Origin: Candidatus Sigynarchaeum calidifontis
GTDB taxonomy: Archaea > Asgardarchaeota > Lokiarchaeia > Sigyniarchaeales > Sigyniarchaeaceae
DNA length: 56,437 nt
Direction: 5' to 3'
NCBI GenBank assembly: GCA_030587475.2
Contig: JAUQYZ020000229.1
Span: forward strand, 1-56,437
Made by a program: the position numbers and the translations under genes. Below are positions 3,481 through 46,615 of this stretch, in pieces; position 1 is the first letter of the stretch, and each line of letters opens with the position of its first letter. The notes under the pieces were generated by a model that ran no database searches, had not been told where the DNA came from, and worked only from the letters and a program-made list of their open reading frames with translations.

Positions 3481-4431
3481 TTAAATGCCGTCTGATAACT
3501 TTGAACCGCACTCGCCGCAGAAGACCGCACGCGGGTCGCTCGTGGGCACCGTGGCGCCGCAGTTCGGGCATTTGCGAACGCCAGTGAAGCCAGCCATGCC
3601 AGGCGGGCTAGCCGCCGGGTTCGTTGGCCCTGCCCGCCCGTCCCACGCGCCGGGCGGCTGGTACCCGTACGCGTCCCGTCCTGCCCACGACGTCGTGCTG
3701 GACGGCGTGGAAAACCGGGGCACCTGCGGCCTCAAGCTCCCGAGCAACGCGAAGACCTGGCTCAGGGTAAAATACCCGATGACCGACACGATGGTCGTCG
3801 CGATGCCCAAGAGCTCGCTCGCGATCAGCTGGGGAATCGGCATCACGATCGCGATGTTTTCGGGGTCGATCGTCGGGTTGTTGATGATCAGGGGAATGCC
3901 CACGATCAGCGACGATGCGATGGCGATGCTGCGCCCGACGATCGCCAGGATCGCGCCGGGCTTCCCGCGGGCGCGGGCATCAATTTCCTCCAAATGGTCG
4001 AAAAACGTGAGCATGAATATCCACGCGATCAACTCGAGGACGATCGTCAAGAGCGAGATGACCGTGCCCGCGGTCAAGATCGGCGAGATGTTGATGGCGC
4101 CCATGCCGCCGCCCGCGAACTCCTCCAGCACCGCGACGAAGGTCAGGGCGAAGATGAGGCCGACCGAGGCAAACGACGCGACCAGCGACACGATCATGAG
4201 GGTCGCGAACATGTTCAAGCGGTCGAACTGGTATTCCTTCGCGGATTTCTTCGCGCTGACGATGATGAGGATCTGGAAGATGAGTAGCGGTATGGAGACG
4301 TAACCCGATATTGAAAAGCCACTAGGGAGTAAATAATTGTCGACGAGGTCGAGCATGGCAGATACCAGAGTGAGAATGGCGAATACCTTGAACCTTAAGC
4401 CGAGTTTGGTGAGATCGTTCTCCATCATCAT
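3481..4431 (-). CDS. Multi-pass membrane protein with C-terminal zinc ribbon
   Basis: About 6 hydrophobic segments, a Pro/Gly linker, then CPNCG...FCGECG. Confidence 0.8.
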   Translation of the reverse strand: MMMENDLTKLGLRFKVFAILTLVSAMLDLVDNYLLPSGFSISGYVSIPLLIFQILIIVSAKKSAKEYQFDRLNMFATLMIVSLVASFASVGLIFALTFVAVLEEFAGGGMGAINISPILTAGTVISLLTIVLELIAWIFMLTFFDHLEEIDARARGKPGAILAIVGRSIAIASSLIVGIPLIINNPTIDPENIAIVMPIPQLIASELLGIATTIVSVIGYFTLSQVFALLGSLRPQVPRFSTPSSTTSWAGRDAYGYQPPGAWDGRAGPTNPAASPPGMAGFTGVRKCPNCGATVPTSDPRAVFCGECGSKLSDGI

Positions 4432-4528
4432 GGGAAAAACTGACCCCCGAGTAACAAGTCAATCTTACTGGACACATGAGAACCTAAGCATAAAAAGGCA
4501 TGCCGGCCGGCACCGGCCACCAGGTCGT

Positions 4529-5314
4529 CTAGTTCCCGGTGATGAGCTGGTTCTTTTCGGCGAGAAAGTCGATGTATCGCTTGATGCTCTCGACCTCGTC
4601 CTTGAACGCGCGGACTTTCATGACGAGCGGCGAGTTCCGGCGATAGGTGAGGTCGATCGGCGTGTCCTTCACGGCGTCCTCGATGAAGATCTTCTTGCGG
4701 CCCTTGAGCGAGTGCATCAAGAATTCCTTGATGTACGGGTCGATCTTGGCCAGTTGATCGACGATGGCCATCTGGATATCGAACTCGGTTGCTTTCTCGA
4801 GGGCCGCGATGAGCGCCTTCGATGCTTTCACGTCTTTGAGCAAAAAGCTTCCGATGAGCTCGACCGCCTTGAGTTTTACCTCTTTATCCGTCTCTTTATC
4901 GAGCCGGTCGATGATCGTGTCGATGATGTTCGCCGATTCGAATTCCACGATCGATTCGAGGACCATCTTGCGGATCTTTGGATCGCCATCCTCGAGCAAC
5001 TTCAAGATCGCGCCCAGGATTTCGGGGTTGCTGGTGTATTTCGCCAGCGTCTTGAGGGCGATCGTGCGAACGCTCTCCTCCGGATCCTTGATCTTGGGAA
5101 TAAGCAGCGTGATCTTGTCCGATGTCTTGTACTTGCCGATGGCCCAGATCGCCGCGCTGCGCACCTCGGCGTCCGCGTCATCGAGCAAGCCGACCAGCGC
5201 GTCGAGAGCACGGATGTTCTTTGAATACCCAATCCCCTTGATGGCTTCGATCTTGTCCTTCGCGCTGGTGTCGGCGGATTTGAGGGTGGAGATCAAGTTA
5301 TCGATAGAACTCAA
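4529..5314 (-). CDS. HEAT-repeat protein
   Basis: Repeated L.D.D..VR..A...L units (DADAEVRSAAIWAIG, DPEESVRTIALKTL, DGDPKIRKMVLESI, ETDKEVKLKAVELI). TTG start. Confidence 0.85.
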   Translation of the reverse strand: MSSIDNLISTLKSADTSAKDKIEAIKGIGYSKNIRALDALVGLLDDADAEVRSAAIWAIGKYKTSDKITLLIPKIKDPEESVRTIALKTLAKYTSNPEILGAILKLLEDGDPKIRKMVLESIVEFESANIIDTIIDRLDKETDKEVKLKAVELIGSFLLKDVKASKALIAALEKATEFDIQMAIVDQLAKIDPYIKEFLMHSLKGRKKIFIEDAVKDTPIDLTYRRNSPLVMKVRAFKDEVESIKRYIDFLAEKNQLITGN

Positions 5315-5470
5315 ACCGAATTCCTCTGGTAGGGTCGATGTTGAATTCGACTTATGCCTTTCAAACTACGGGTCGAATTAAAAGTGTCGAAAGTCACTCG
5401 TGGAACTCGTCGACGAGGCGTGATGCCCCATGGTCGAATCGAGTGGGGGTTCGAAAAGCGAAAAAAGTGA

Positions 5471-7804
5471 TTAGAAAGGAGTCTCACCGAACATGAAGAT
5501 GAAAAATGCCATGACGTGGTTCGCGCTCGCGTCTTGCACCTCGGCGACCACGTAACACCCGTCGCCAACGACATCGGCGGGTTCCACGTCCACGATATAA
5601 GGAACGACCGGGTTGGGGATGACCGGGCCTGCCGGGGGCCCCAGAGGCTCGTTCGTGGTCGCGTTGTACTTGTGCACGTAGATCACCCAATCAGGCATGA
5701 ATGCACCGAGATCCGTGCCCGCGAAGGTTATCACGTTCATGTAGATCATGAACGGCCCCGGCACGTGCAGCGTGTTCGACACCCTGCATCGGTAACCATC
5801 GAAAATCGTGCCCGTCAGGCCATCGGTCGTGCACGTCGCGTTATACGGGTATACAGGGATGCCCGGCGCCCGGGAGTAATCCGGCTCGTTGGGCGGGTTG
5901 GTCGGCTTGTTGAACATCTGGTATGCGGGCTTGAACTGGACGGTCACGTTGCAAGCCGCGGTGTCGTTTAAGTTCATCTTCACGAGGCGCACGTTGTCTA
6001 CCTTCGAGGGGTCGATCGGGATAGGTGCTTGCGTGGAGCCCGGCGTGTTTTTCACGGTATAATGGTAGATCTCGGTGCTGCCGTCCTTGCGTTCGATGAT
6101 CACCGTCACCGAAACGGCCTGGCCTGGCTGCGGCGTTATCCAGATCTCCAGCGGCGCGGACCCCAGCATGGCGAAATCCTCGACGGCGGCACCATAAGGC
6201 GCGACGCTTTCGGTTGACGTGTAACCGGCATCGCCGACAGGCATCGACTCGTCGGGTTTCACCGCCGGGACGCCGTTGTTGTCCTCCGCGGACCCGTCCG
6301 CCCGCCACTGGTAGTACCGGCGGAGCAATTCGGCAAAAGACAGGCCGGTCGCGGCCTCGGCGGCTTCGCGGAAGCCCACCGACCCGCTCATCGAGTTCGT
6401 CAAGTTCTTCAAGACACCCTCGCCGAACGTCTCGTTGATGAACTTGAGCAGCAAGAAGCCATTGCAATAGTCACCATGGGTGAACCCGAACCTGGTCGTC
6501 CCGTTGACCGTGCCATTGCCGAACGTCGGCATGTTCAGGCTCTTGCCGTGCTTGTCCCATGACTGGCCTGGGATGCCCCTCGAATTCACGATCTGGCCGA
6601 TGAGCGTGTTGACTTGCTGCACGGTCAGGTTGTAGTTCCGCGCCGCGCTAACCGTGCCCCAATACGTCGCCTCGCCCTCGTAAAAGGCTTCATTTCCCTT
6701 CTTGATGATGCCTTGCTCGTACTGGTAGGCATGCACGACCTCGTGCTCGACGTTGTACTTCAAATCGACCTTACCCCGGAACTGGCGGGCCGCATCCCCG
6801 GACCGGATCTCGTTTCCCACCCAAATGTAGATCGACCCGTTCGGATACGTGGCGCCGAAGGATGAATTGGCACCCTCGTGGACGCCGATGTGGATGTCGA
6901 GCACGTTGTCATTGCCCAACTTCGGGCCGCCAGCACGCCCGAATCGCGCGAGGTACCTTATCGTTGCCTCGACCATCTCCTTTATCTCGCCCGGGGAGAT
7001 GCCAGGCGTCGGATGCGCGTTCGTGACCGCGATGGGAACGGGGTTGGGGGACTGCGCCCCCACGTACGCGGGGTAATGATCGAGGAACCCGTTGTAGATC
7101 ACCTCGGCGACGTCGGGCACGCTCCCGTTTCCCGCCGGGTCGTCCACGACGTTGTGCAAGTTGTTGAAGGAGGCGGGCGTGGGGGTGTCGTTGTACCAGT
7201 TGCATGACCTGTCTTGGTCCCAGCCCCAGATCGAGATCGATTCGGAATCATTGCTGGTCGAAGCCCCGCCATCCGAGATGTCCCAGCCGGCAAGCCCGAG
7301 AGGCGCCGCTAACCCGCCATAGCAGACATAATCGATGAGATATTCCGTCCCGTTGTCAAAATAGAGGAGCACGTGCCCGGACTGCTCATCCAACAGCCTC
7401 GCCGGGACATCGAGATGCACGACGGCGCTCAACGTGGTGGCATCGATTGACGTGGATCCAGCATCGCCGCGGATGCACGCGTGCCAGAACTCGCCGAACC
7501 CGGCGATCTCGGGGATCGAGGTCTTCGGAACGATGACGTTCCCGTCGCGATCCCTTGTCTCGATGTACCAGTTCTTCAAGGAATTCGTTGAAAAGTTCGT
7601 GAAAGAATACACCTCGATGAACTGGTCGTTCAACAATATGCCGCTGTCAGACTTGTACCTGATTTCGGAAATCATGACCTTAAATGGCTTTCCAGGCGTG
7701 CTGCCTGGAAGGAGGAGGAAACCAAAAACGATGGCCAATGATGCACCCGCGACCATCGCCGAAATCGCGATGGCCCTGGCGTGTTTTATTGTTCTCGGCG
7801 CCAT
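5471..7804 (-). CDS. Secreted or membrane-anchored protein: lamin-tail-like domain plus HEXXH zinc metallopeptidase
   Basis: N-terminal hydrophobic anchor; ISEIRY...DQFIEVY...IDYVCYG...PTPA resembles LTD; HEVVH followed by FYEGEATY is gluzincin-like. ATG 7804 preferred over 7939. Confidence 0.72.
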   Translation of the reverse strand: MAPRTIKHARAIAISAMVAGASLAIVFGFLLLPGSTPGKPFKVMISEIRYKSDSGILLNDQFIEVYSFTNFSTNSLKNWYIETRDRDGNVIVPKTSIPEIAGFGEFWHACIRGDAGSTSIDATTLSAVVHLDVPARLLDEQSGHVLLYFDNGTEYLIDYVCYGGLAAPLGLAGWDISDGGASTSNDSESISIWGWDQDRSCNWYNDTPTPASFNNLHNVVDDPAGNGSVPDVAEVIYNGFLDHYPAYVGAQSPNPVPIAVTNAHPTPGISPGEIKEMVEATIRYLARFGRAGGPKLGNDNVLDIHIGVHEGANSSFGATYPNGSIYIWVGNEIRSGDAARQFRGKVDLKYNVEHEVVHAYQYEQGIIKKGNEAFYEGEATYWGTVSAARNYNLTVQQVNTLIGQIVNSRGIPGQSWDKHGKSLNMPTFGNGTVNGTTRFGFTHGDYCNGFLLLKFINETFGEGVLKNLTNSMSGSVGFREAAEAATGLSFAELLRRYYQWRADGSAEDNNGVPAVKPDESMPVGDAGYTSTESVAPYGAAVEDFAMLGSAPLEIWITPQPGQAVSVTVIIERKDGSTEIYHYTVKNTPGSTQAPIPIDPSKVDNVRLVKMNLNDTAACNVTVQFKPAYQMFNKPTNPPNEPDYSRAPGIPVYPYNATCTTDGLTGTIFDGYRCRVSNTLHVPGPFMIYMNVITFAGTDLGAFMPDWVIYVHKYNATTNEPLGPPAGPVIPNPVVPYIVDVEPADVVGDGCYVVAEVQDASANHVMAFFIFMFGETPF

Positions 7805-36058: not shown

Positions 36059-36493
36059 TCAGCCTTCTTTCGGGGCTTCCCTGATGGGCTTGCCGGTCTT
36101 GTAGAGCACGCTCGTCATGGTGGCGACCGTCTTCTTCTTGCCTCCCTCGTCGACGTAGATGTCGAAGATGTAGTGGCCGATCTTGGAAGATCCCGACAGC
36201 TCGCGGCCCTCGACGTACAGCGTCTTGCCCGGGTCGGGGCTGCTGTGGTAGCTGATGTTGCACTCGACGGCGACGGACAAGTTATTGTTGTTATTGCCGA
36301 TGACCGAGAACGCCGCGTCGGCGAGGGCATAGATCGCGCCACCGTGTGGTCGGCCGAAGAGATTCAACGAGCTCAAGTCCAAGACCATGTGCGCCTTGAC
36401 CGTGTTTTCGGTCACGTCATCGAGCACGATCTTGAACTTGTTGGCGAAATTGTCCCGCTTGAACTGTTCCTTGATGATGTCCAGGTTGTTCAT
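36059..36493 (-). CDS. PaaI-family hotdog thioesterase
   Basis: NLFGRPHGGAIYALAD, ISY. ATG at 36493. Confidence 0.9.
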   Translation of the reverse strand: MNNLDIIKEQFKRDNFANKFKIVLDDVTENTVKAHMVLDLSSLNLFGRPHGGAIYALADAAFSVIGNNNNNLSVAVECNISYHSSPDPGKTLYVEGRELSGSSKIGHYIFDIYVDEGGKKKTVATMTSVLYKTGKPIREAPKEG

Positions 36494-36537
36494 GATGATC
36501 CTCAATGTTTTCGCGAGCAAATAAACGGCGGGCCGGG

Positions 36538-37659
36538 TCACGTGCCCAGCCGCTGCCGGACGAACTCGACGACCTTGCCACATGCTTCCGTGGCCGCCTT
36601 GGTGCGGCGCGAGATTTCCATCTGGAAGGCGTGCTGCACCCCGGCCCATTCTTGCAGCGTCGCTTCGCCCCCGCTGGCCTTCACTTTTTCGACGAGACGC
36701 GTGGCATCGCTATACAGCGATTCGGACGACGATACTTGCACGAGCATCGGGGGAAGGCCACCCAGATCCGCGAAGAGGGGGGAGAAGCCAGGATCCTTCG
36801 GATCGGTCTTGGCCTGCAGAACGAGATTTTGAATGACGACGCCCATGCCGCTGGTGCCGAGCACGGGGTCGGAAACCATGTTCGGGAAGATGGAAGGCCC
36901 GCTCATCGTCAAGTCAGTCGGCGGGGACATGAGCACGGCTCCCGCGGGCGCGGGAAAACCCTCGCGCTTGGCCCGGAGGAGGAGTAGCAGCGTGAGATGG
37001 GCACCTGCCGACTCGCCGCCGACCACGACGTCGCGCGCGGCGACGCCCGAGGCGAGCAGCCACTTGTACGCGGCCGTCACGTCGTCGATCTGGGCCGGGT
37101 GGACGTGATCCGGGTAGAACCGGTAGGTGGGACTGAAGACGCGTACCTTGGCGCCCGTGGCGATCGTCGCGGAGAACGCGCGGGATGCCTTGGGCGAGCC
37201 CGTGAACCAACCGCCGCCGTGGACGTACATAAAGACCTTGCTGGCGCTAGCACCGGGCACCGTGCACCACTCGGCAGGCTTGCTGGTGCCCACGTCGACT
37301 TGCTCGAATTTCACGCCCTCGGGCAGCCCGTGCCGCTTGATGTGGCCTTCGGACATTTTTTCCACGACGTACTGCGCGAGGGGGGCGAATTTTTTCAGCA
37401 ATTCCATCGGGAGGATCCCGTCGACCTTTATCGGATCGATGGATTGCAACTGGTAAGCTCGCTCGCTGATCTTCCGTATCCGGCCATAGAGCGCGTTGAT
37501 CTTGAACACGTTCATGCGATGCTTGATGCAATAGACGAGCACGTGCTTGATAGCAAGCTTTTCGTCCTCCTTGGCGATTGCAACGGTTTCCGGGGTTAAC
37601 TTGGTCGTGTCGAGACGGAGCATGCCGGGCTCGAACCTCGTTCTTCGTCTAGTATGCAT
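36538..37659 (-). CDS. HSL-family alpha/beta hydrolase (esterase)
   Basis: HGGGW, YR..P, GESAG, SPLF..L.GLPP, HAFQ. Confidence 0.92.
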   Translation of the reverse strand: MHTRRRTRFEPGMLRLDTTKLTPETVAIAKEDEKLAIKHVLVYCIKHRMNVFKINALYGRIRKISERAYQLQSIDPIKVDGILPMELLKKFAPLAQYVVEKMSEGHIKRHGLPEGVKFEQVDVGTSKPAEWCTVPGASASKVFMYVHGGGWFTGSPKASRAFSATIATGAKVRVFSPTYRFYPDHVHPAQIDDVTAAYKWLLASGVAARDVVVGGESAGAHLTLLLLLRAKREGFPAPAGAVLMSPPTDLTMSGPSIFPNMVSDPVLGTSGMGVVIQNLVLQAKTDPKDPGFSPLFADLGGLPPMLVQVSSSESLYSDATRLVEKVKASGGEATLQEWAGVQHAFQMEISRRTKAATEACGKVVEFVRQRLGT

Positions 37660-37720: not shown

Positions 37721-40700
37721 CTATTTCTTTATGACCTCCAGCAAAACGGGGCTAGCCCGGCCGCGGGCTTCCGGGTTGTACATCGCATAGACTTCCGTGC
37801 CCGCGTGGGTGCCAGAGAATGCGCGGGAAGCGATCAGCGAGTAATCAAACGAGCAGCTCGCCGAGCGGGGATACAACACGATCTTTTCCGCACTCCGCGA
37901 GAAATAATCGAAGGACAAGTTGCCTTGCATCGACGCGTCGAACGCCTCGACGTCGAGCCCGAACCCGGCGGGAATGCGTTCCTCGATGACGGCGCATTGA
38001 TCGATGCCTTGGGCTGCCGTGACCCTCACCGAGACGTTGATCGTTTCGCCGATGCGTGCCGTCTTGCTGGAGTGGACCCGCTCGATCGTGAACGCGCCTT
38101 GCCCGGGCAAGCGTTCTTTTGACCATATCTCCTCGGAGAGCTGGTATTGCACCTCCCGATCGCTCTTGACGCGGATTTCAACGTCGTTTTTACCTGGAAC
38201 GAGGAATTGGGTCACGTTCATATCGCGCAAGTTGACGAATTCTTCCGTGATGTTCGATGCATCGACATGCACGCGCCTCGAATGGCCGTTCACGAGGATC
38301 TCGCCGTTAACAGCGGGATCGCTCTCCTGGTGCAGCGCGAGCACGGCCTCCACGACGCTTGCCGTAGCCATGGTCGTCCCCCAACCGCCGTTCGCGGCCC
38401 GTGCACCAAGGATCCAGCCCAGGCAGCCTTGTAAATCTTGATCTAGGCCCGTCGCGTGTTGAAGGATCAAGAAATGAAGGACCTTGGCCGTCGCATCAAC
38501 TTTCCCGCCGAGTGCCGACCCGGCATTCCAATACTTGCCATTCCCGATCTTCACGAGCCGGTCCCGTATCCTCTCGATGCATGGGTTCTCCGGGGAGAGC
38601 CGGCTCATGGCCAGGCCGGCGATGGCCAGGGCGTTCGGATCGTCCTTGATCGAGTCCAATGCGATCCCGATGAATGATATCCCTTTTTTCACCATCGAAT
38701 CGAACTTCACCCTCCAATCGCCGGTTTCGGAGATGCACAGGAGCAGCCAGGCCGTCATGCCCGCCTCGTTCAACGACAAGGCATCCTTGCCCCAGACCTT
38801 GTCCCACTTGAGGGCTTGCTCGGGATACCACGAGCCGTTGGCTTGCTGCCTCCCGGCGATGACCTCGAGGGCATCGTTGATGACACCTTGTGGGGCGTGA
38901 AAACCAAGTGCCTTCATCTTCAGGAGCCCACGTAAAACGTATGCGGTCATGAAGAGGTTCGTCTCGTCATGTTCCCACCAGCCCCAGCCATTGTCGGCGT
39001 GGCGGAAGGAAAGCAGCCGCTGGAGACCCTTTGCCGTCATGTCCTCGCATACCTTCTTGTATCGGGGCGTGAGGCGGTGCCGTGCCTGCAACGCCTCGAA
39101 CACGAGGAGGTTCGGTAGCACGGACGACATAGTCTGTTCCACGCAGCCATGTGGGTATGCCAGCATGGCCTCGAGGCCGTCGAGTGCCAGGGACGACCGG
39201 TCGGGGATGATGCTGAGGCGCGCGTAGTGTGCCATCTCGCTAGGCGCGACATCGATGGCGAGCCTTTCGGGGGTCGATTGACCGCCGGGGATGGAGCCCC
39301 GGGTTATCTTGATATCAGGTTCCCCTTCCGGATGGACGAAGATGACCTGGTCGACCACGTCCTTGTAGCCCGGGCTGGCCGCCGTGAACACGAGATGCTT
39401 CTCGCCGCAAGACGTGGCATGTACGGTCCACGAAACTCGCTCGACCGCGTTGCTGTCCACGTGGATCTTTCCCGCAAGGGCGGACGTGATAGCAAAACCT
39501 TCTGCATCGAGGGACACATGGACGTCCATGGCTCCGGCGGTCCGATTGGTCACGACCGCGCTGACCATCACGATGTCGTTGTAGACCAGGTGTGGCGGTA
39601 TGTCGGGTTGGATGAAAAATTCCTGGCGCACGAGGATTTTCTTCGTTGCCATGCCAGCATCGCATGCTTTCGACGTGGCCTGGACGACGAAATCTTGCTG
39701 CGTGATCGTGTCCGGCAGCTTGAAAGAAATGGTTGCCTGGCCACCATCCACGATGGCTCGCGGGTTCCAATAGCCGCAATCGGGAAAATACGTGCGAACC
39801 GTGACGACTGGTCCATGGTCAGTTTTTTTTGCACTAAATGGGGTGGGGGTTGGGCGACCGCCACCTACGTCTGTCATGATCATCGTGTATTTCGGGTAAC
39901 CCACGACGACCGGGATGAAGAATCGTGGGAATTCATTCGTGGCTTGATCGCTCACGAGCGTGTCAGAAAGTTGGTCAACGCATATGATCGATTCGAAATC
40001 GACTTGCTTGAAAAGAAATACGCTGGCTTGATCGATGCGGCTCTGGCGTCGCATGTTTTCATAATAATCTAATACTTTTTTCTCGTCACTTGCTGCTTGA
40101 AAATGGCCTGGAACGGCCAGTATCACCTTGCCAGGACATTTATTGAGGTACTTGTCCACGTCGTTCAAGACTTCCACGAATTCTTGCGTGGCTCCGATAG
40201 ACTTAATGAATTTGTTGAAATCCTCTGGAGGAATGTTGCACCGCAAGGAGCGAAATTCGTGGGTGCTCCAATACAAGACTGCTTCTAGGATACCAGGAAA
40301 CTCGTCTTCGAGTGCTTGAACCAAGGGATTGCCCGGGGCAATCAAGAACTTCCACGTTTCCACGATGCAAGGAAACCATGCTAGCTGCTTGGCGAGTTCA
40401 TCCATATTCTTGTATTTGGCGCGTTGATAATCCAGGATGAACGAGATCACGGCATCTGGTGGTTGGTTCCCGCACGTGCAGCGCAAGCTCGTGAGGTGGT
40501 GCTCGATGAAATCGCTGGAGCAAAATCCGCTCCGCTCCACGAGCTTCACGAGGTGGAGCACGTCGCTGGCTGTAAAAATGCCGGAAAATGCGTACTGGTC
40601 GATGTTCTTGATGATGTCGCCCAGGAAAAAATCGAGTTCCCTCGAGAGGTCCGAATACAGCGATGTCCACGAGTCTTGCACTGCTATGGCATATCTGATG

Positions 40701-42315: not shown

Positions 42316-43431
42316 TCATTTTCCTATGAACTCGTGCAGGCTGAGCCGGTGAATCACTTGCGGGCCGTTGTCCAGGTATTCCCGGCGCTGGATCCAGCCC
42401 CTCGGGTCGCCGGACGAGGCACGGGCGATGCATGCCAGGCCGCGCCAGAGCGCTATATCCGGGCGCTCGGGAACCGTGAATTTCACGGTAGAAAGGTCGG
42501 GCAAGGCCGATGCAATGCCCTTTTCCTTGCCTCGCGATGTCCCAGACAACGCGGCACGAAATTCCCGATTCAACCGCTCTTGCCAGCCGGGGAACCGCGC
42601 GGCCGACCCCACCACGGGGATGGAATCGAGAGCAGCGATGAATTTCTTGCGGCTTGCCTCGTCTTCCAATCCGGCAATGACATCATCGATGCATTGAATC
42701 ATGGCTTGCTGGATCGGCAACCCCTCGAACCCGAAATTATCCGGATCCGACCGGAAATAGACATCGAAACACTCGTCACGCTCGCCGTCCACCGCGATGT
42801 TCTCGCCATCGGGAAGGACGTACGTCGCCCTGCGTGGCGTGGTGCTCCCGCCTTGCCCGAAGACCGAGCCAAGCTTGTTAACGAGGTCAACCGTGTATTC
42901 ATACCGCCAGTATTCACCCAGAGGGATCTTCTTGTTATTCGCGAGGAGCCGGCGGACGTATTGATATACCTTGTGGAGCGAGCATTCGAGGCTCTTGATC
43001 TCGCGCGAAAGGGGAAGACCATCGATGCACGGCACGATGCTCGTGTAGGTGTCCCCGAGCAAGGCGACGAGGCCCGTTTTCTTCCCCGTGGCCGCCATCG
43101 CCGCGTTGCTATCGCTGGCCAAGCACAACGCCGGCACTGAGAACGTCTCGAACAGGATCTCGGCTATTTTTTCGAGGTCACGGCGCGGGGTCATGTCCTT
43201 GTATAGCATCGCGACCGGGTGCTCGGTTGGATCGATGCGCATTTCCGTGTAAAACATGTAATGCCAGATCTTTTCGATGGCCGAGAAATCTTCGATGATG
43301 CCGTTCTCGACGGGATATGCCAATTTTAATACTCCAGAGAGCTGCAGTGCTTCCTCGCCCACGTAATATTCTCGGGCGTACCCGCCGATTTCAACGTCGT
43401 AATAATGGTATTCTCTCGTGAACGGGTTCAA
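42316..43431 (-). CDS. Divergent actin-family protein (Asgard actin/ARP-like), N-terminally truncated
   Basis: YVGEEA...LKLAYPVENGII...EKIWHYMFY.EMRIDP.EHP...EKIAEILFETFSVPA, YVLPDG, PER...W.G...WI.R.EY...GP.VIHR all align to actin. The phosphate-1 DxGS motif is absent. Confidence 0.9.
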   Translation of the reverse strand: MNPFTREYHYYDVEIGGYAREYYVGEEALQLSGVLKLAYPVENGIIEDFSAIEKIWHYMFYTEMRIDPTEHPVAMLYKDMTPRRDLEKIAEILFETFSVPALCLASDSNAAMAATGKKTGLVALLGDTYTSIVPCIDGLPLSREIKSLECSLHKVYQYVRRLLANNKKIPLGEYWRYEYTVDLVNKLGSVFGQGGSTTPRRATYVLPDGENIAVDGERDECFDVYFRSDPDNFGFEGLPIQQAMIQCIDDVIAGLEDEASRKKFIAALDSIPVVGSAARFPGWQERLNREFRAALSGTSRGKEKGIASALPDLSTVKFTVPERPDIALWRGLACIARASSGDPRGWIQRREYLDNGPQVIHRLSLHEFIGK

Positions 43432-43852
43432 TCGATCCCCCTCGCGTCGTCGATCTGTTATCTCCTAGACGTCTTCCACCTCGGGTAATTTATACTTGTA
43501 TTAATTTAAAACGCGTGAGGGCATCTGCGTGCCACGTGGAAAAAAAAGCGACGAAATGCTTGGTATTAGTGCCCGCTGGCGGCTTAGCACGGTAAGAGCT
43601 CGACCACATCGTGGGATCAGCACGGCCAAATAACATCATCGCGTTCATCGTCGTGTCCATCGTCGTGCAGTGCCATTGCGCGTGGTCTAATTCGGTCGGA
43701 TCGGTCAAAATGCATAATCGAGGCTCTTCGTCTCGACGTGATAAAACACGTCACTCGTGCACTTCACGGGGATTCATGCTCGACTCGCGCCCACCAACCT
43801 TGAAAGATGAGCCGGGAACATGGAAATTGTGGGGGAACATGAGAAAAGAAGA

Positions 43853-46615
43853 TCAGCGCGCGGCCCGCGCGCGCATCTTGTGCTGCACGAGCTTTCGCAG
43901 CTCGTCGCCGAAGAATACCGTGCTCGCGACGGCGAATATCTCGACCCATTCCAAGAGCGTGAGTGGCGTGGTACCCAGCCCTATCTGGAATATCGGCACG
44001 TAGGTCACCATCACTTGCAGCGAGATGGAAAGCACGATGGAGAAGAGCAAGTACTTGTTGTTCCGCAACCCGATCGTGAACACGGATAGCGTGCGCGACT
44101 TGCAATTGAGGGCATTGAACACCTGGAACATGGCAAGCGTGGTGAAACCAACCGTCCTCGCTTCCTGGAGGTTCCACGTCGATGTCCACGTGATGTGAAA
44201 CAATAACAACGTCCCGATCATCATCAGCGTGGACACGAACAGGGTGTTTTGCAATATCTCGCGGTTGATGATCCGGGCATCTGGCGGGCGTGGTGGCTCG
44301 TCCATGACATCGCGTTCCTTCGGTTCCATGGCAAGGGTGACGTCCAGCACCCCGTCGGTGACCAGGTTCACCCAGAGGACCTGGACAGGCGTGAAGATGA
44401 TGAAATCATATTGTACCCCCGTGAGCAAGGGCATCAACGTGAGCGAGACGATGATCGTGAGGATCTCGCCGAGATTCGTGGAAAGCAGGTACTTCACCAC
44501 CTTGCGCACGTTGGAGAACACGACCCGTCCCTCCTCGATGGCAGCAACGATGCTCGAAAAATTATCATCCGTGAGGATCATGTCCGATGCTTCCTTTGCC
44601 ACGTCCGTGCCCGTGATGCCCATGGCAACCCCGATGTCCGCCGACTTCAGCGCGGGCGCGTCGTTCACGCCATCGCCCGTCATGGCGATAACGTGGCCCT
44701 TGCGACGCAAGGATTGCACGATCTGGTACTTGTTCGTCGGGGACACGCGGGCGAACACGTTCGTGGCATCGATGATGCCGTCGATCGCGTTATCGTCCAT
44801 CTTGTCGAGTTCCTCGCCAGTGACGACACGGCCCCCCTCCCGGACGATGTTTAATTCCTTCCCGATGGCTTCCGCGGTGATCCGGTGGTCGCCCGTTGCC
44901 ATGATGACCTTGATGCCGGCCCTGGTGCAAGTGGCGATGGACGGCAGCGACTCGGGACGGGGGGGATCGATCATGCCGGCGAGGCCCAGGAAAGTACCGG
45001 GTCGCCCTCCATCCTTGAAAGAACTCTTGAAATCGGCGATCTCGTCCCTTTTTATTTCCGCATGGGCCAGGCCAAGCACTCTTAGGGCGTTGCGAGCCAT
45101 TTCCTCGTTGACTTTCAAGATCCGGGCACGTTCGCTCTCGTCCATAGCGACTGCCTTGCCGGCACGTGCTAGCGACGAGCATCGATCGAGAACGATCTCG
45201 GGCGCGCCCTTGATCAAGACATCGATCTTGCCCCCTCCGATGTCGTGGAACGTGATCATGTACTTTTCCTTGGAATTGAAGGGAACCTCGTCGATCCGGG
45301 CGTAATTCTCCTCCACTTCTTCCTTGTGGATGCCTTTTTTCGCGGCAAGGACGAGGAGCGCCCCCTCGGTAACGTCACCATATATCATCCAGCCTTGCTT
45401 CTCGCCTTCCTTGTGCTGCCGGAGACGTGCATCGTTGCAAAGCGTGGCGACTTGCAACAGCTTGGCCAACGATGGCACCGAGCTATCGTCCACTTCCACG
45501 CCATCGACTTGAAATTGACCCTCTGGAACGAAGCCGGCACCGGTCACGTCAACGATCTGCCCGTCGACGTATAATTTGCGCACGGTCATCTGGTTCGTCG
45601 TCAGGGTGCCCGTCTTGTCGGTGCATATGACCGATGCCGCCCCGAGCGTGTCCACGGCTTGCAGCTTCCGGATGATCGCGTTGCGCTTGGCCATCCGGTT
45701 GACGCCGATCGCCAGCGTGATGGTCATGACGGCGGGTAATCCCTCTGGTATGGCCGAAACGGCGGTCGCCAGGCCGAAAAAAAAGAGATCCAGCACGTGG
45801 AACGCCCGGAGAAGACCGACGACGATGATCGACGCGCTCGCGATGAGGGCGAGCAAGCCGAGCTTCTTCGTGATGTCCTCGGTCTGCTTCTGGATGGGTG
45901 TCTTGACTTTCTCGGCCCGGGTGAGCAGCGTGGCGATTTTACCGATCTCCGTCCGCATGCCCGTCGCGACGACGATGCCCTTGCCACGCCCGTGCGTGAC
46001 GACCGTGCCGGAATACGCCATGTTGACACGATCCCCGATGAGGAATTCTGGCTTGACCTTGCCGGTGCTCTTGTTCACGGTCGTGGATTCGCCCGTGAGC
46101 ATCGACTCGTCAACTTCAAGGTTCGATACCTCGAAGAGCCGGACGTCAGCGGGTACCTTGTCACCAGCCTCGAGCAAGACGACATCTCCGGGCACGATCT
46201 CGGAAGCCTTCAACCGTATCTCCGCGCATCCTGCTTGCCCGGAACATTTTCGCAACACGTCCGCTTCATGGAACGTGAGTTTCTTCAACGCTTCAAGCGC
46301 CGTCTCCGCCTTGTATTCCTGGCTAAAGCCGAGGATCGTGTTGAAGGCGATGACCGCGATGACGACGTAGGTATCCACGTACTTGCCGGCCAAGACGGAC
46401 AAGAATGCTGCAATGACGAGAACGATGAACAGCGGGTTCTTGATCTGGTCTAACAATATCTCGAGCTTGGTGACCTTGTGCCCCTCGACGAGTTCGTTCG
46501 GGCCGTATGCCTGGAGTCGACGTGTGACCTCGCCCTCCGAGAGCCCGTGGGGACCCGTGTCGAGTTCCTTGAAGACCGCTTCGACCTCCAACGAGTGCCA
46601 CTTGTTTTCTTTCAT
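43853..46615 (-). CDS. P-type ATPase, type IIA (Ca2+-transporting-like)
   Basis: YGPNEL, LTGES, AIPEGLP, DKTGTLT, KGAPE, DPPR, TGD, GDGVNDAPALK, LWVNLVTD. ATG at 46615. Confidence 0.96.
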   Translation of the reverse strand: MKENKWHSLEVEAVFKELDTGPHGLSEGEVTRRLQAYGPNELVEGHKVTKLEILLDQIKNPLFIVLVIAAFLSVLAGKYVDTYVVIAVIAFNTILGFSQEYKAETALEALKKLTFHEADVLRKCSGQAGCAEIRLKASEIVPGDVVLLEAGDKVPADVRLFEVSNLEVDESMLTGESTTVNKSTGKVKPEFLIGDRVNMAYSGTVVTHGRGKGIVVATGMRTEIGKIATLLTRAEKVKTPIQKQTEDITKKLGLLALIASASIIVVGLLRAFHVLDLFFFGLATAVSAIPEGLPAVMTITLAIGVNRMAKRNAIIRKLQAVDTLGAASVICTDKTGTLTTNQMTVRKLYVDGQIVDVTGAGFVPEGQFQVDGVEVDDSSVPSLAKLLQVATLCNDARLRQHKEGEKQGWMIYGDVTEGALLVLAAKKGIHKEEVEENYARIDEVPFNSKEKYMITFHDIGGGKIDVLIKGAPEIVLDRCSSLARAGKAVAMDESERARILKVNEEMARNALRVLGLAHAEIKRDEIADFKSSFKDGGRPGTFLGLAGMIDPPRPESLPSIATCTRAGIKVIMATGDHRITAEAIGKELNIVREGGRVVTGEELDKMDDNAIDGIIDATNVFARVSPTNKYQIVQSLRRKGHVIAMTGDGVNDAPALKSADIGVAMGITGTDVAKEASDMILTDDNFSSIVAAIEEGRVVFSNVRKVVKYLLSTNLGEILTIIVSLTLMPLLTGVQYDFIIFTPVQVLWVNLVTDGVLDVTLAMEPKERDVMDEPPRPPDARIINREILQNTLFVSTLMMIGTLLLFHITWTSTWNLQEARTVGFTTLAMFQVFNALNCKSRTLSVFTIGLRNNKYLLFSIVLSISLQVMVTYVPIFQIGLGTTPLTLLEWVEIFAVASTVFFGDELRKLVQHKMRARAAR

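Follow-up and report, generated by a model that had tools for sequence, protein, structure and literature searches.

The 56,437-nucleotide stretch of Candidatus Sigynarchaeum calidifontis DNA analyzed here (contig JAUQYZ020000229.1 of assembly GCA_030587475.2), which will be referred to as the window, carries two adjacent genes that together appear to encode one naturally split actin. One gene codes for an actin homologue that starts in the D-loop and makes up the rear five-sixths of an actin, in the following called dN-actin, and the other for a thioester protein (TEP) of the A2M family. The N-terminus of dN-actin has not been lost but is encoded, in degenerate form, at the bait site of the adjacent TEP. 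The two genes are also found together in other Asgard loci, where the breakpoints of the two actin pieces co-vary; dN-actin is under purifying selection, and the TEP, which carries the actin piece at its bait position, keeps a CxEQ thioester motif. We propose, with a probability of roughly 0.6, that the split, nucleotide-dead actin serves as bait or plug in a cytoplasmic thioester trap. The features of the window are compiled in Table 1; other loci, genomes and proteins are given by their handles (e.g., L025) where they have to be told apart.

An Actin N-Terminus Inside the Thioester Protein

Searching with the genome's own lokiactin (tblastn) located the first ~40-60 actin residues inside A2M genes. 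The fragment embedded in the window TEP corresponds to lokiactin residues ~3-42 and comprises strands 1-3, a degenerate phosphate-1 (P1) loop reading DQLSD and the first half of the D-loop. BLASTP with lokiactin positions 1-65 matched nine out of nine such TEPs in the same place with E values from 8e-27 to 6e-7, among them the TEPs of L043 (E 8e-27, 69% over 59 residues), L042 (E 5e-26, 73% over 56 residues), L040 (E 7e-15, 63% over 41 residues), L044 (E 4e-10, 46% over 41 residues), L025 (E 1e-8, 53% over 40 residues) and the window (E 6e-7, 58% over 26 residues). Pfam Actin positions 5-54 were found in the TEPs of L042 (29.8 bits) and L043 (26.8 bits). A hidden Markov model (HMM) of 13 lokiactin N-termini was run against the 68,879 six-frame open reading frames (ORFs) of the window genome and retrieved the canonical actin (E 1e-30), an actin-related protein (ARP)-like gene (E 1e-9) and the window TEP (E 8e-4); no other copy of the actin N-terminus was detected below E=3 in this set.

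When eleven inserts were aligned, the eight invariant columns all fell within P...G-Y-P-K-Y-x-S-I-M-T-D-V, a stretch that directly precedes the MG6b/A2M domain and comprises the strand running into the D-loop together with the D-loop's first half. Within the window fragment, 11 of the 12 residues of the D-loop-proximal stretch are identical to the host lokiactin, whereas the rest has drifted. The P1 loop, which reads DNGTG in lokiactin, is degenerate in all inserts (DQLSD, DNLPD, ELGAD, ELGSN, TANSK), and strands 1-3 upstream of the D-loop, though degenerate, are kept in register in all TEPs. Near the A2M domain of the larger Asgard TEPs (~2000 aa; L035-L039) no actin fragment was found, and the insert is therefore not general to Asgard TEPs.

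The TEP gene begins 11 nt past the dN-actin stop codon; in L025, L026 and L027, whose TEPs have ~1530 aa and contain A2M and TED domains, the gap is 10 nt. Its product contains the Pfam domains MG2, A2M and TED_complement as well as a weak bMG10. The window motif GCVEQ aligns with GCGEQ of human A2M, and the thioester motif is kept in all examined TEPs of the actin-fragment type. Further upstream in the TEP, VTVRTYFPD aligns with ETVRKYFPE of human A2M, where residue 729 is the first after the bait region. At this position, where a typical A2M bait region is short, flexible and protease-sensitive, the window TEP carries an insertion of ~320 aa. It is made up of a helical domain, followed by the actin fragment and a Gly/Pro linker of 20 aa. 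The helical domain is conserved in the orthologues; Foldseek returned no PDB match for it at E<=0.001, the overall confidence of its model being low (60). The linker, GGGRPTPTPFSAKKTDHGPV, is a candidate scissile bait or tether, and the D-loop might likewise be the bait. A simple hydropathy scan of all nine TEPs, the window protein included, detected neither a hydrophobic N-terminus as expected for a signal peptide (maximum KD19 over the first 60 residues <=0.84) nor a transmembrane-like segment, which suggests that the TEP is probably cytoplasmic, like actin.

Two further observations concern the TEPs. The window protein matches the structures of eukaryotic A2M, TEP1 and CD109 with E values of 3e-26 to 3e-19, and bacterial A2Ms with E 1e-6. 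In L046 (8996-15940), a TEP variant of 2314 aa with the thioester motif GCIEQ carries the actin fragment at residue ~1561, indicating that the N-terminal half of the protein can expand greatly.

Sequence Features of dN-Actin

dN-actin is read from a TTG start through 371 codons with no internal stop, and an in-frame TAG is located 12 codons 5′ of the TTG (43467-43465). No DNGSG-like or other actin N-terminal segment is present in the three frames of 43432-43862; the P-type ATPase upstream of dN-actin ends at 43853. A 72-aa ORF in this region (43490..43708) is unsupported. The Pfam Actin profile (PF00022) matched dN-actin with 146.8 bits (cut-off 27), covering profile positions 44-190 and 255-407 only, and PDB actins align from their residue ~42 onward to dN-actin residue 12-14. 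The best PDB sequence match was 9wc4_A ("HC1 actin", E 1e-45), followed by cytoplasmic and muscle actins; NCBIfam gave only a sub-threshold "syringactin" match at the tail.

Alignment with lokiactins and a metazoan actin showed the erosion of the nucleotide site. The phosphate-2 (P2) motif reads LLGDTYTS (DSGDGVTH in actin), the adenosine motif VVGSAARFPG (LSGG(S/T)TMFPG in actin), and the equivalents of the catalytic Gln137 and His161 are Asp and Ser. The actin/HSP70/hexokinase ATPase core (phosphate-1, connect-1, phosphate-2, adenosine, connect-2) is thus not complete on the dN-actin chain, phosphate-1 being off-chain and the phosphate-2 and adenosine motifs degenerate, and this loss of motifs predicts that dN-actin would not bind ATP. 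In addition, dN-actin has an insert of 15 aa and is extended by 8 aa at its C-terminus, and the residues equivalent to Y143, Y169, L346 and L349 of the barbed-face groove are substituted.

Most of what the sequence-only reading had described is borne out by these data. Pfam, PDB and the lokiactin alignment agree on an actin homologue without the N-terminal P1 loop and with eroded P2 and adenosine motifs; the intact frame, its TTG start and the upstream TAG are read from the sequence as stated; a DNGSG segment indeed cannot be encoded just upstream; and the subdomain 1/2 stretch and the C-terminal W..EY..GP..HR stretch are conserved in the alignment. Similarity to actin was said to set in at YYVGEEA, which is close to the mark, but it actually starts ~10 residues earlier, in the second half of the D-loop.

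The dN-actin gene ends at 43431, and positions 43432-43500 represent its leader and promoter region. A Shine-Dalgarno-like motif and the archaeal TATA-box-like element TATAAATTA (Table 1) would be its translation and transcription signals, and the in-frame TAG (43465-43467) sits between the TATAAATTA box and the start codon. The ~55-nt leader within this region is partly conserved in L025, L026 and L027 (GG.GGA...GATAGAA.AAGC) and might be regulatory.

Pairing and Co-Varying Breakpoints in Asgard Archaea

At least 12 Asgard loci, representing five or more families, show a dN-actin paired with a TEP, in either gene order. Every dN-actin with readable context adjoins a TEP, namely those of the window, L025, L026, L027, L040, L042, L043, L044, L046 and L049. 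The TEP precedes dN-actin in L040, L044 and L049; in L042 and L043 the TEP is followed first by one or two VWA(+TPR) genes and only after these by dN-actin; and in L046 dN-actin comes first. In L048, the neighbouring 731-aa product (10-nt gap) is truncated by the end of the contig and is without a Pfam record; it counts as a TEP only by assumption. The phosphate-2 and adenosine motifs are degenerate in all dN-actins. Within this set, the window's genus is characterized by the dN-actin-first order, a split in the middle of the D-loop, the helical bait domain, and accompanying esterase and thioesterase genes. Full-text literature searches turned up neither a pairing of actin with A2M nor a natural split actin in archaea.

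The strongest argument for a split actin, as judged from the sequences, is that the two breakpoints move together. In lokiactin numbering, the TEP piece ends at 42 (IMTDV) and dN-actin starts at 34-47 in the window's genus, L040 and L044; the piece ends at 45-46 (EHY(T)) and dN-actin starts at 44-45 in L046 and L049; and in L042 and L043 the piece ends at 58-60 (EEAxxLxG) and dN-actin starts at 61 (VLK...). Because the breakpoints co-vary in these three classes, each TEP piece and its dN-actin add up to one actin. The L046 dN-actin (P0036) begins directly at M-EYSREYY.

In a quick maximum-likelihood tree, 13 TEP-linked dN-actins formed one clade (SH-aLRT 99) that is sister to the Asgard lokiactins; dN-actin fell outside the lokiactin clade and did not group with the ARP-like paralogue of its own genome.

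Some candidates and neighbours deserve mention. L041 (G087:C291) contains a 355-aa ORF (3843-4907, minus strand) downstream of a fragment-bearing TEP; with ~18% identity to dN-actins and no Pfam match it was not accepted, and the locus was omitted from the tree and from the counts of confirmed pairs, although the ORF may be an extremely diverged dN-actin. The VWA genes of L042 (1401-2447, minus strand) and L043 (3899-4942, minus strand) encode ~345 aa with a weak TPR match, and L043 contains, at 4941-5972 (minus strand), what looks from its N-terminus like a paralogue.

Orthologues, Selection, and the Question of an Artefact

The window genome (~5.0 Mb, 269 contigs, 89% complete) contains, apart from dN-actin, a canonical lokiactin on contig C144 (436 bits) and the ARP-like paralogue on contig C59. 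Database searches retrieved four close relatives of dN-actin (P0002-P0005; 64-70% identity), and the next-best matches were ordinary lokiactins with 37-40% identity. Gene calling gave exactly 371 aa for three of the four orthologues; the 343 aa given for the fourth are solely due to its homologous start codon, which reads ACG. In this locus, L027 of GCA_040961015, the ACG occupies positions 6562-6564, the ATG chosen by the gene caller lies 28 codons downstream and GAGGG is retained; the ACG reflects either non-canonical initiation or an error in sequencing. The close dN-actin form is limited to the window's genus among 400 species-representative Asgard genomes, and an exhaustive search of 1.84 billion representatives returned it as one 50%-identity cluster. 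Two 333-aa proteins (P0006, P0007) that might pass for truncated dN-actins are encoded on ~1-kb contigs, are canonical lokiactin from the D-loop on, and look like lokiactins cut by a contig end. The fusion forms P0045, P0079, P0099, P0128, P0157 and P0137 were likewise set aside, being either CRAL_TRIO plus full actin or a full-length Actin domain only.

The start region is shared among the orthologues. Their start codons are ATG, TTG or ACG at one common position, in-frame stops occur no more than four codons upstream of the start in L025, L026 and L027, GAGGG is found in the same place in these three loci, and a TTAAAT in the orthologous loci lines up with the TATAAATTA box at conserved distances. 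The four coding sequences align over 371 codons with no gap, and the pairwise ratio of nonsynonymous to synonymous substitutions (dN/dS) is 0.20-0.39 at dS 0.5-1.0, from which it follows that dN-actin is under purifying selection; presumably, this selection is weaker than that on a working actin.

An upstream in-frame stop and a non-ATG (TTG) start would also be expected if mis-assembly or a recent 5′ deletion had taken the start of an ordinary actin gene. Yet four independent assemblies and one JGI contig share the 371-codon gene and its start position, dN/dS stays below 0.4 without any indel, and a canonical lokiactin is present elsewhere in the genome. The orthologues already refute this explanation, whose probability is practically nil. 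Two of the checks proposed in the sequence-only reading, a truncation shared by orthologues and the dN/dS ratio, hence came out in favour of a selected gene rather than random decay: the orthologues have 371 aa, the same start site and a conserved ribosome-binding site. Its inference of a pseudo-actin kept by selection is supported, the eroded motifs pointing to an ATP-dead protein; its picture of a free-standing truncated actin with an absent N-terminus is not supported.

Do the Two Pieces Reassemble?

The AlphaFold2 (AF2) model of dN-actin (pLDDT 83, pTM 0.81) shows the actin fold minus strands 1-3, with residues 1-18 disordered, and reaches a TM score of 0.77 to actin structures; 3ue5, the structure of ECP-cleaved actin, is among its top structural matches. 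Modelled alone, the bait insertion contains the helical domain at pLDDT ~80, and the actin fragment is disordered at ~33. Complexes of dN-actin with TEP residues 745-835 were then predicted using purpose-made alignments and three controls. The ipSAE values were 0.91, 0.91 and 0.90, the best of the three controls reaching 0.00; the mark applied is attained by 58 of 80 solved complexes and by 2 of 110 mismatched pairs, but since solved actin structures are abundant, passing it shows likeness and not binding of this particular copy. Contacts agreed between runs to at least 71%, partner pLDDT was at least 61, and 160-170 contacts were confident.

In the model, TEP residues 772-786 contact dN-actin residues 72-76 and 329-333 (strand 1, which thus faces the PVLLTE strand as well as the C-terminal helix), and TEP residues 797-806 contact dN-actin residues 23-24 and 37-39 in the subdomain-2 sheet. 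The complex is thus predicted to rebuild the native actin topology. Residues of window dN-actin at this interface match the lokiactin consensus in 53% of cases versus 29% elsewhere (p=3e-4), and dN is 0.133 at the predicted interface versus 0.224 elsewhere. The well conserved surface that had been remarked upon from the sequence is real as far as the conserved stretches go, but according to the model these largely pack against the relocated N-terminal strands.

Comparison with Known Systems

From the D-loop to the C-terminus, dN-actin is homologous to lokiactin and eukaryotic actin. Unlike them, its chain has no residues 1 to ~40, and P1 (on the partner), P2, the adenosine motif and Gln137/His161 are degenerate, in addition to the insert and the C-terminal extension. 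The closest physical precedent is protease-nicked actin. Subtilisin cuts actin at Met47-Gly48 and ECP32/protealysin at Gly42-Val43; in D-loop-nicked actin the N-terminal ~5-kDa piece stays non-covalently bound and the fold is preserved. As nicked actin keeps its fold (3ue5), an actin split at the D-loop is physically viable. The chain break lies in the D-loop in both cases, but nicking follows the folding of one chain, whereas here two genes are involved, the small part is an internal piece of the 1527-aa TEP, and lineages differ in where the split is located.

With the A2M family (human A2M 6tav/7von, A2ML1 7q1y, CD109 8s3o, Anopheles TEP1 2pn5/4lnv and C3/C4/C5, as well as the bacterial proteins ECAM/YfhM 5a42 and SaA2M 4u48) the window TEP shares MG2, A2M, TED and CxEQ as well as an insert at the bait/anaphylatoxin position before R-x-Y-F-P-[DE]. 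C3 carries the anaphylatoxin domain where A2M has its bait region, and bait cleavage in A2M or removal of C3a in C3 leads to thioester activation. In contrast to these proteins, the window TEP has no signal peptide or lipobox and is apparently cytoplasmic, and its bait consists of a helical domain of ~180 aa plus an actin fragment that is predicted to need a second gene product to fold. The ARPs (Arp2/3, Arp4-Arp8 and the Asgard ARP-like gene G000 C59) are comparable as diverged actin folds that serve as modules of complexes and not as filaments, but are full-length single chains, most of them with nucleotide-binding motifs. As a conceptual analogue only, the integrated decoys of plant NLRs also place a copy of a host target within a sensor to detect attack; their sequence, structure and sensor chemistry are unrelated, and in the Asgard pair the decoy is split over two genes and its function would be a supposition.

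Proposed Mechanism and Alternatives

We suggest a strand complementation in which the strands carried by the TEP would be inserted into dN-actin, so that a complete, nucleotide-free actin-fold domain would be locked non-covalently onto the TEP bait site. The D-loop offered by the pseudo-actin would resemble that of lokiactin, with a flexible Gly/Pro linker behind it. If the pseudo-actin were cut or displaced, as might be done by an actin-directed protease or effector from a virus or a foreign cell, the plug would be released, and an A2M-type conformational change would expose the thioester for covalent capture. Taken alone, a role of the pseudo-actin as bait or plug of such a trap has somewhat less than an even chance. 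More tentative, and rather doubtful at present, is the wider idea that a cytoplasmic, complement-like thioester sensor guards the Asgard actin cytoskeleton, an attack on its split dead-actin decoy leading to tagging or trapping of the attacker; the version in the window's genus would then be a derived one, distinguished by the additional helical domain in the bait and by the esterase and thioesterase as accessory enzymes. The term "decoy" used in the sequence-only reading may still apply, though to a device made up of two genes.

Several points weigh against the trap. The N-terminal fragment of the window is the most degenerate of all, reaching only E 8e-4 in the genome-wide search and escaping Pfam. 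Reassembly rests on a predictor that knows actin, and the high complex score may reflect likeness to solved actin; the contrast in conservation between interface and rest is absent in eight distant dN-actins, and the corresponding dN/dS contrast is small (0.24 versus 0.30). The dN-actin clade is possibly inflated by long branches (stem 1.16) in a quick tree search. The protease-bait step is hypothetical, and the cluster contains no protease gene. Moreover, the trap does not explain the neighbouring esterase and thioesterase and leaves unaccounted for the ~180-aa helical domain that shares the bait insertion, and none of the four proteins (dN-actin, TEP, esterase and thioesterase) matched a PADLOC defence family.

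The main rival, which we nevertheless consider unlikely, is a cytoskeletal adaptor: the reassembled pseudo-actin would dock the TEP on lokiactin monomers or filament ends, for instance by presenting its conserved D-loop to the barbed-end groove of lokiactin or by acting as an end cap, resulting in localisation of the TEP or control of polymerisation. The near-identity of the window's 12 D-loop-proximal residues to lokiactin amid otherwise drifted sequence fits this, as the D-loop makes the longitudinal filament contact in actin, and so does the position of dN-actins as sister to lokiactins. On the other side, the D-loop is broken at its middle by the Gly/Pro linker, the barbed-face groove residues of the window dN-actin are substituted, and the loss of all nucleotide motifs would, as in actins generally, be expected to abolish regulated polymerisation.

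A lower probability still is assigned to a free-standing, N-terminally truncated pseudo-actin acting as capper, decoy or scaffold, for which the TEP stretch would be an unrelated mimic. Purifying selection on a conserved truncation agrees with it, and AF2 folds dN-actin confidently without the N-terminus, although from an alignment of full-length actins; but without strands 1-3 the core sheet of subdomain 1 would lie open, and neither the three classes of co-varying breakpoints, each pair summing to one actin, nor the adjacent TEP in all loci with context, nor the complex prediction of 0.91 versus 0.00 would be expected of it. Marginally less probable again is that the TEP fragment alone is a linear bait mimicking the lokiactin D-loop, which dN-actin would reversibly mask and unmask. 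That the fragment is disordered when folded without its partner, that the invariant positions cluster in the 16 D-loop-proximal residues and that both genes are retained everywhere would suit a linear bait, whereas the retention of strands 1-3, needed for fold complementation and not for a linear bait, and the extensive predicted interface speak against it.

Genomic Neighbourhood

Downstream of the TEP, two co-oriented enzyme genes are conserved in the four loci of the genus (Table 1). The true start of the thioesterase is probably later than that of its ORF, since the orthologues have 144-148 aa. HepT-like/MNT (Polbeta nucleotidyltransferase) toxin-antitoxin pairs lie directly upstream of dN-actin in two unrelated loci (L025:6157-7244 and L048:7207-7835), a weak hint at a defence-island-like context. 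Arf/Ras/Roc-type small GTPase genes occur within a few kb of the pair in L026 (64-627) and L048 (2529-3815), which may merely reflect their abundance in Asgard archaea.

Table 1: Features of the dN-actin/TEP locus in window positions.
Feature	Position	Strand	Basis or remark
Hotdog-fold (4HBT/PaaI-like) thioesterase	36059..36649	-	Co-oriented, conserved in the genus's four loci
Abhydrolase_3/hormone-sensitive-lipase-type esterase	36538..37659	-	Co-oriented, downstream of TEP, conserved in the genus's four loci
A2M/TEP-type thioester protein (TEP), 1527 aa	37721..42304	-	Pfam, PDB alignment, hydropathy scan
Thioester motif GCVEQ in the TED, TEP residues 1053-1057 (Cys1054, Gln1057)	39134..39148	-	Alignment
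Gly/Pro-rich linker GGGRPTPTPFSAKKTDHGPV between actin fragment and VTVRTYFPD	39806..39865	-	Sequence
Embedded actin N-terminal fragment, TEP residues 771-813 (ESIICVDQLSD ... GYPKYTMIMTDV)	39866..39994	-	BLASTP, HMM, model contacts
Helical domain, ~180 aa, TEP residues ~544-724, in the bait insertion 5′ of the actin fragment	40133..40675	-	AF2 pLDDT ~80
dN-actin, 371-aa actin homologue starting in the D-loop	42316..43431	-	ORF, Pfam, PDB alignment
Shine-Dalgarno-like motif GAGGGGG, 5 nt upstream of the TTG	43437..43443	-	Sequence; putative function
Archaeal TATA-box-like element TATAAATTA, ~55-63 nt upstream of the start	43486..43494	-	Sequence comparison; putative promoter

Implications

If true, a natural split actin would mean that the actin fold tolerates encoding by two genes, a breakpoint that moves in or near the D-loop, and grafting into another protein. 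The A2M/C3/TEP family would gain a form that is apparently cytoplasmic and has as its bait a folded domain for which a part is supplied in trans, and the stronger match of the window TEP to eukaryotic members may be relevant to the question of where eukaryotic thioester proteins came from. The proposal would also give a joint explanation for about a dozen genes that are labelled "truncated actin" or "hypothetical A2M" in Asgard metagenome-assembled genomes. The pairing brings together, within Asgard archaea, two families that are both strongly connected to eukaryotes, and defence or regulation of the Asgard actin cytoskeleton by a dedicated machinery would become testable with two recombinant proteins.

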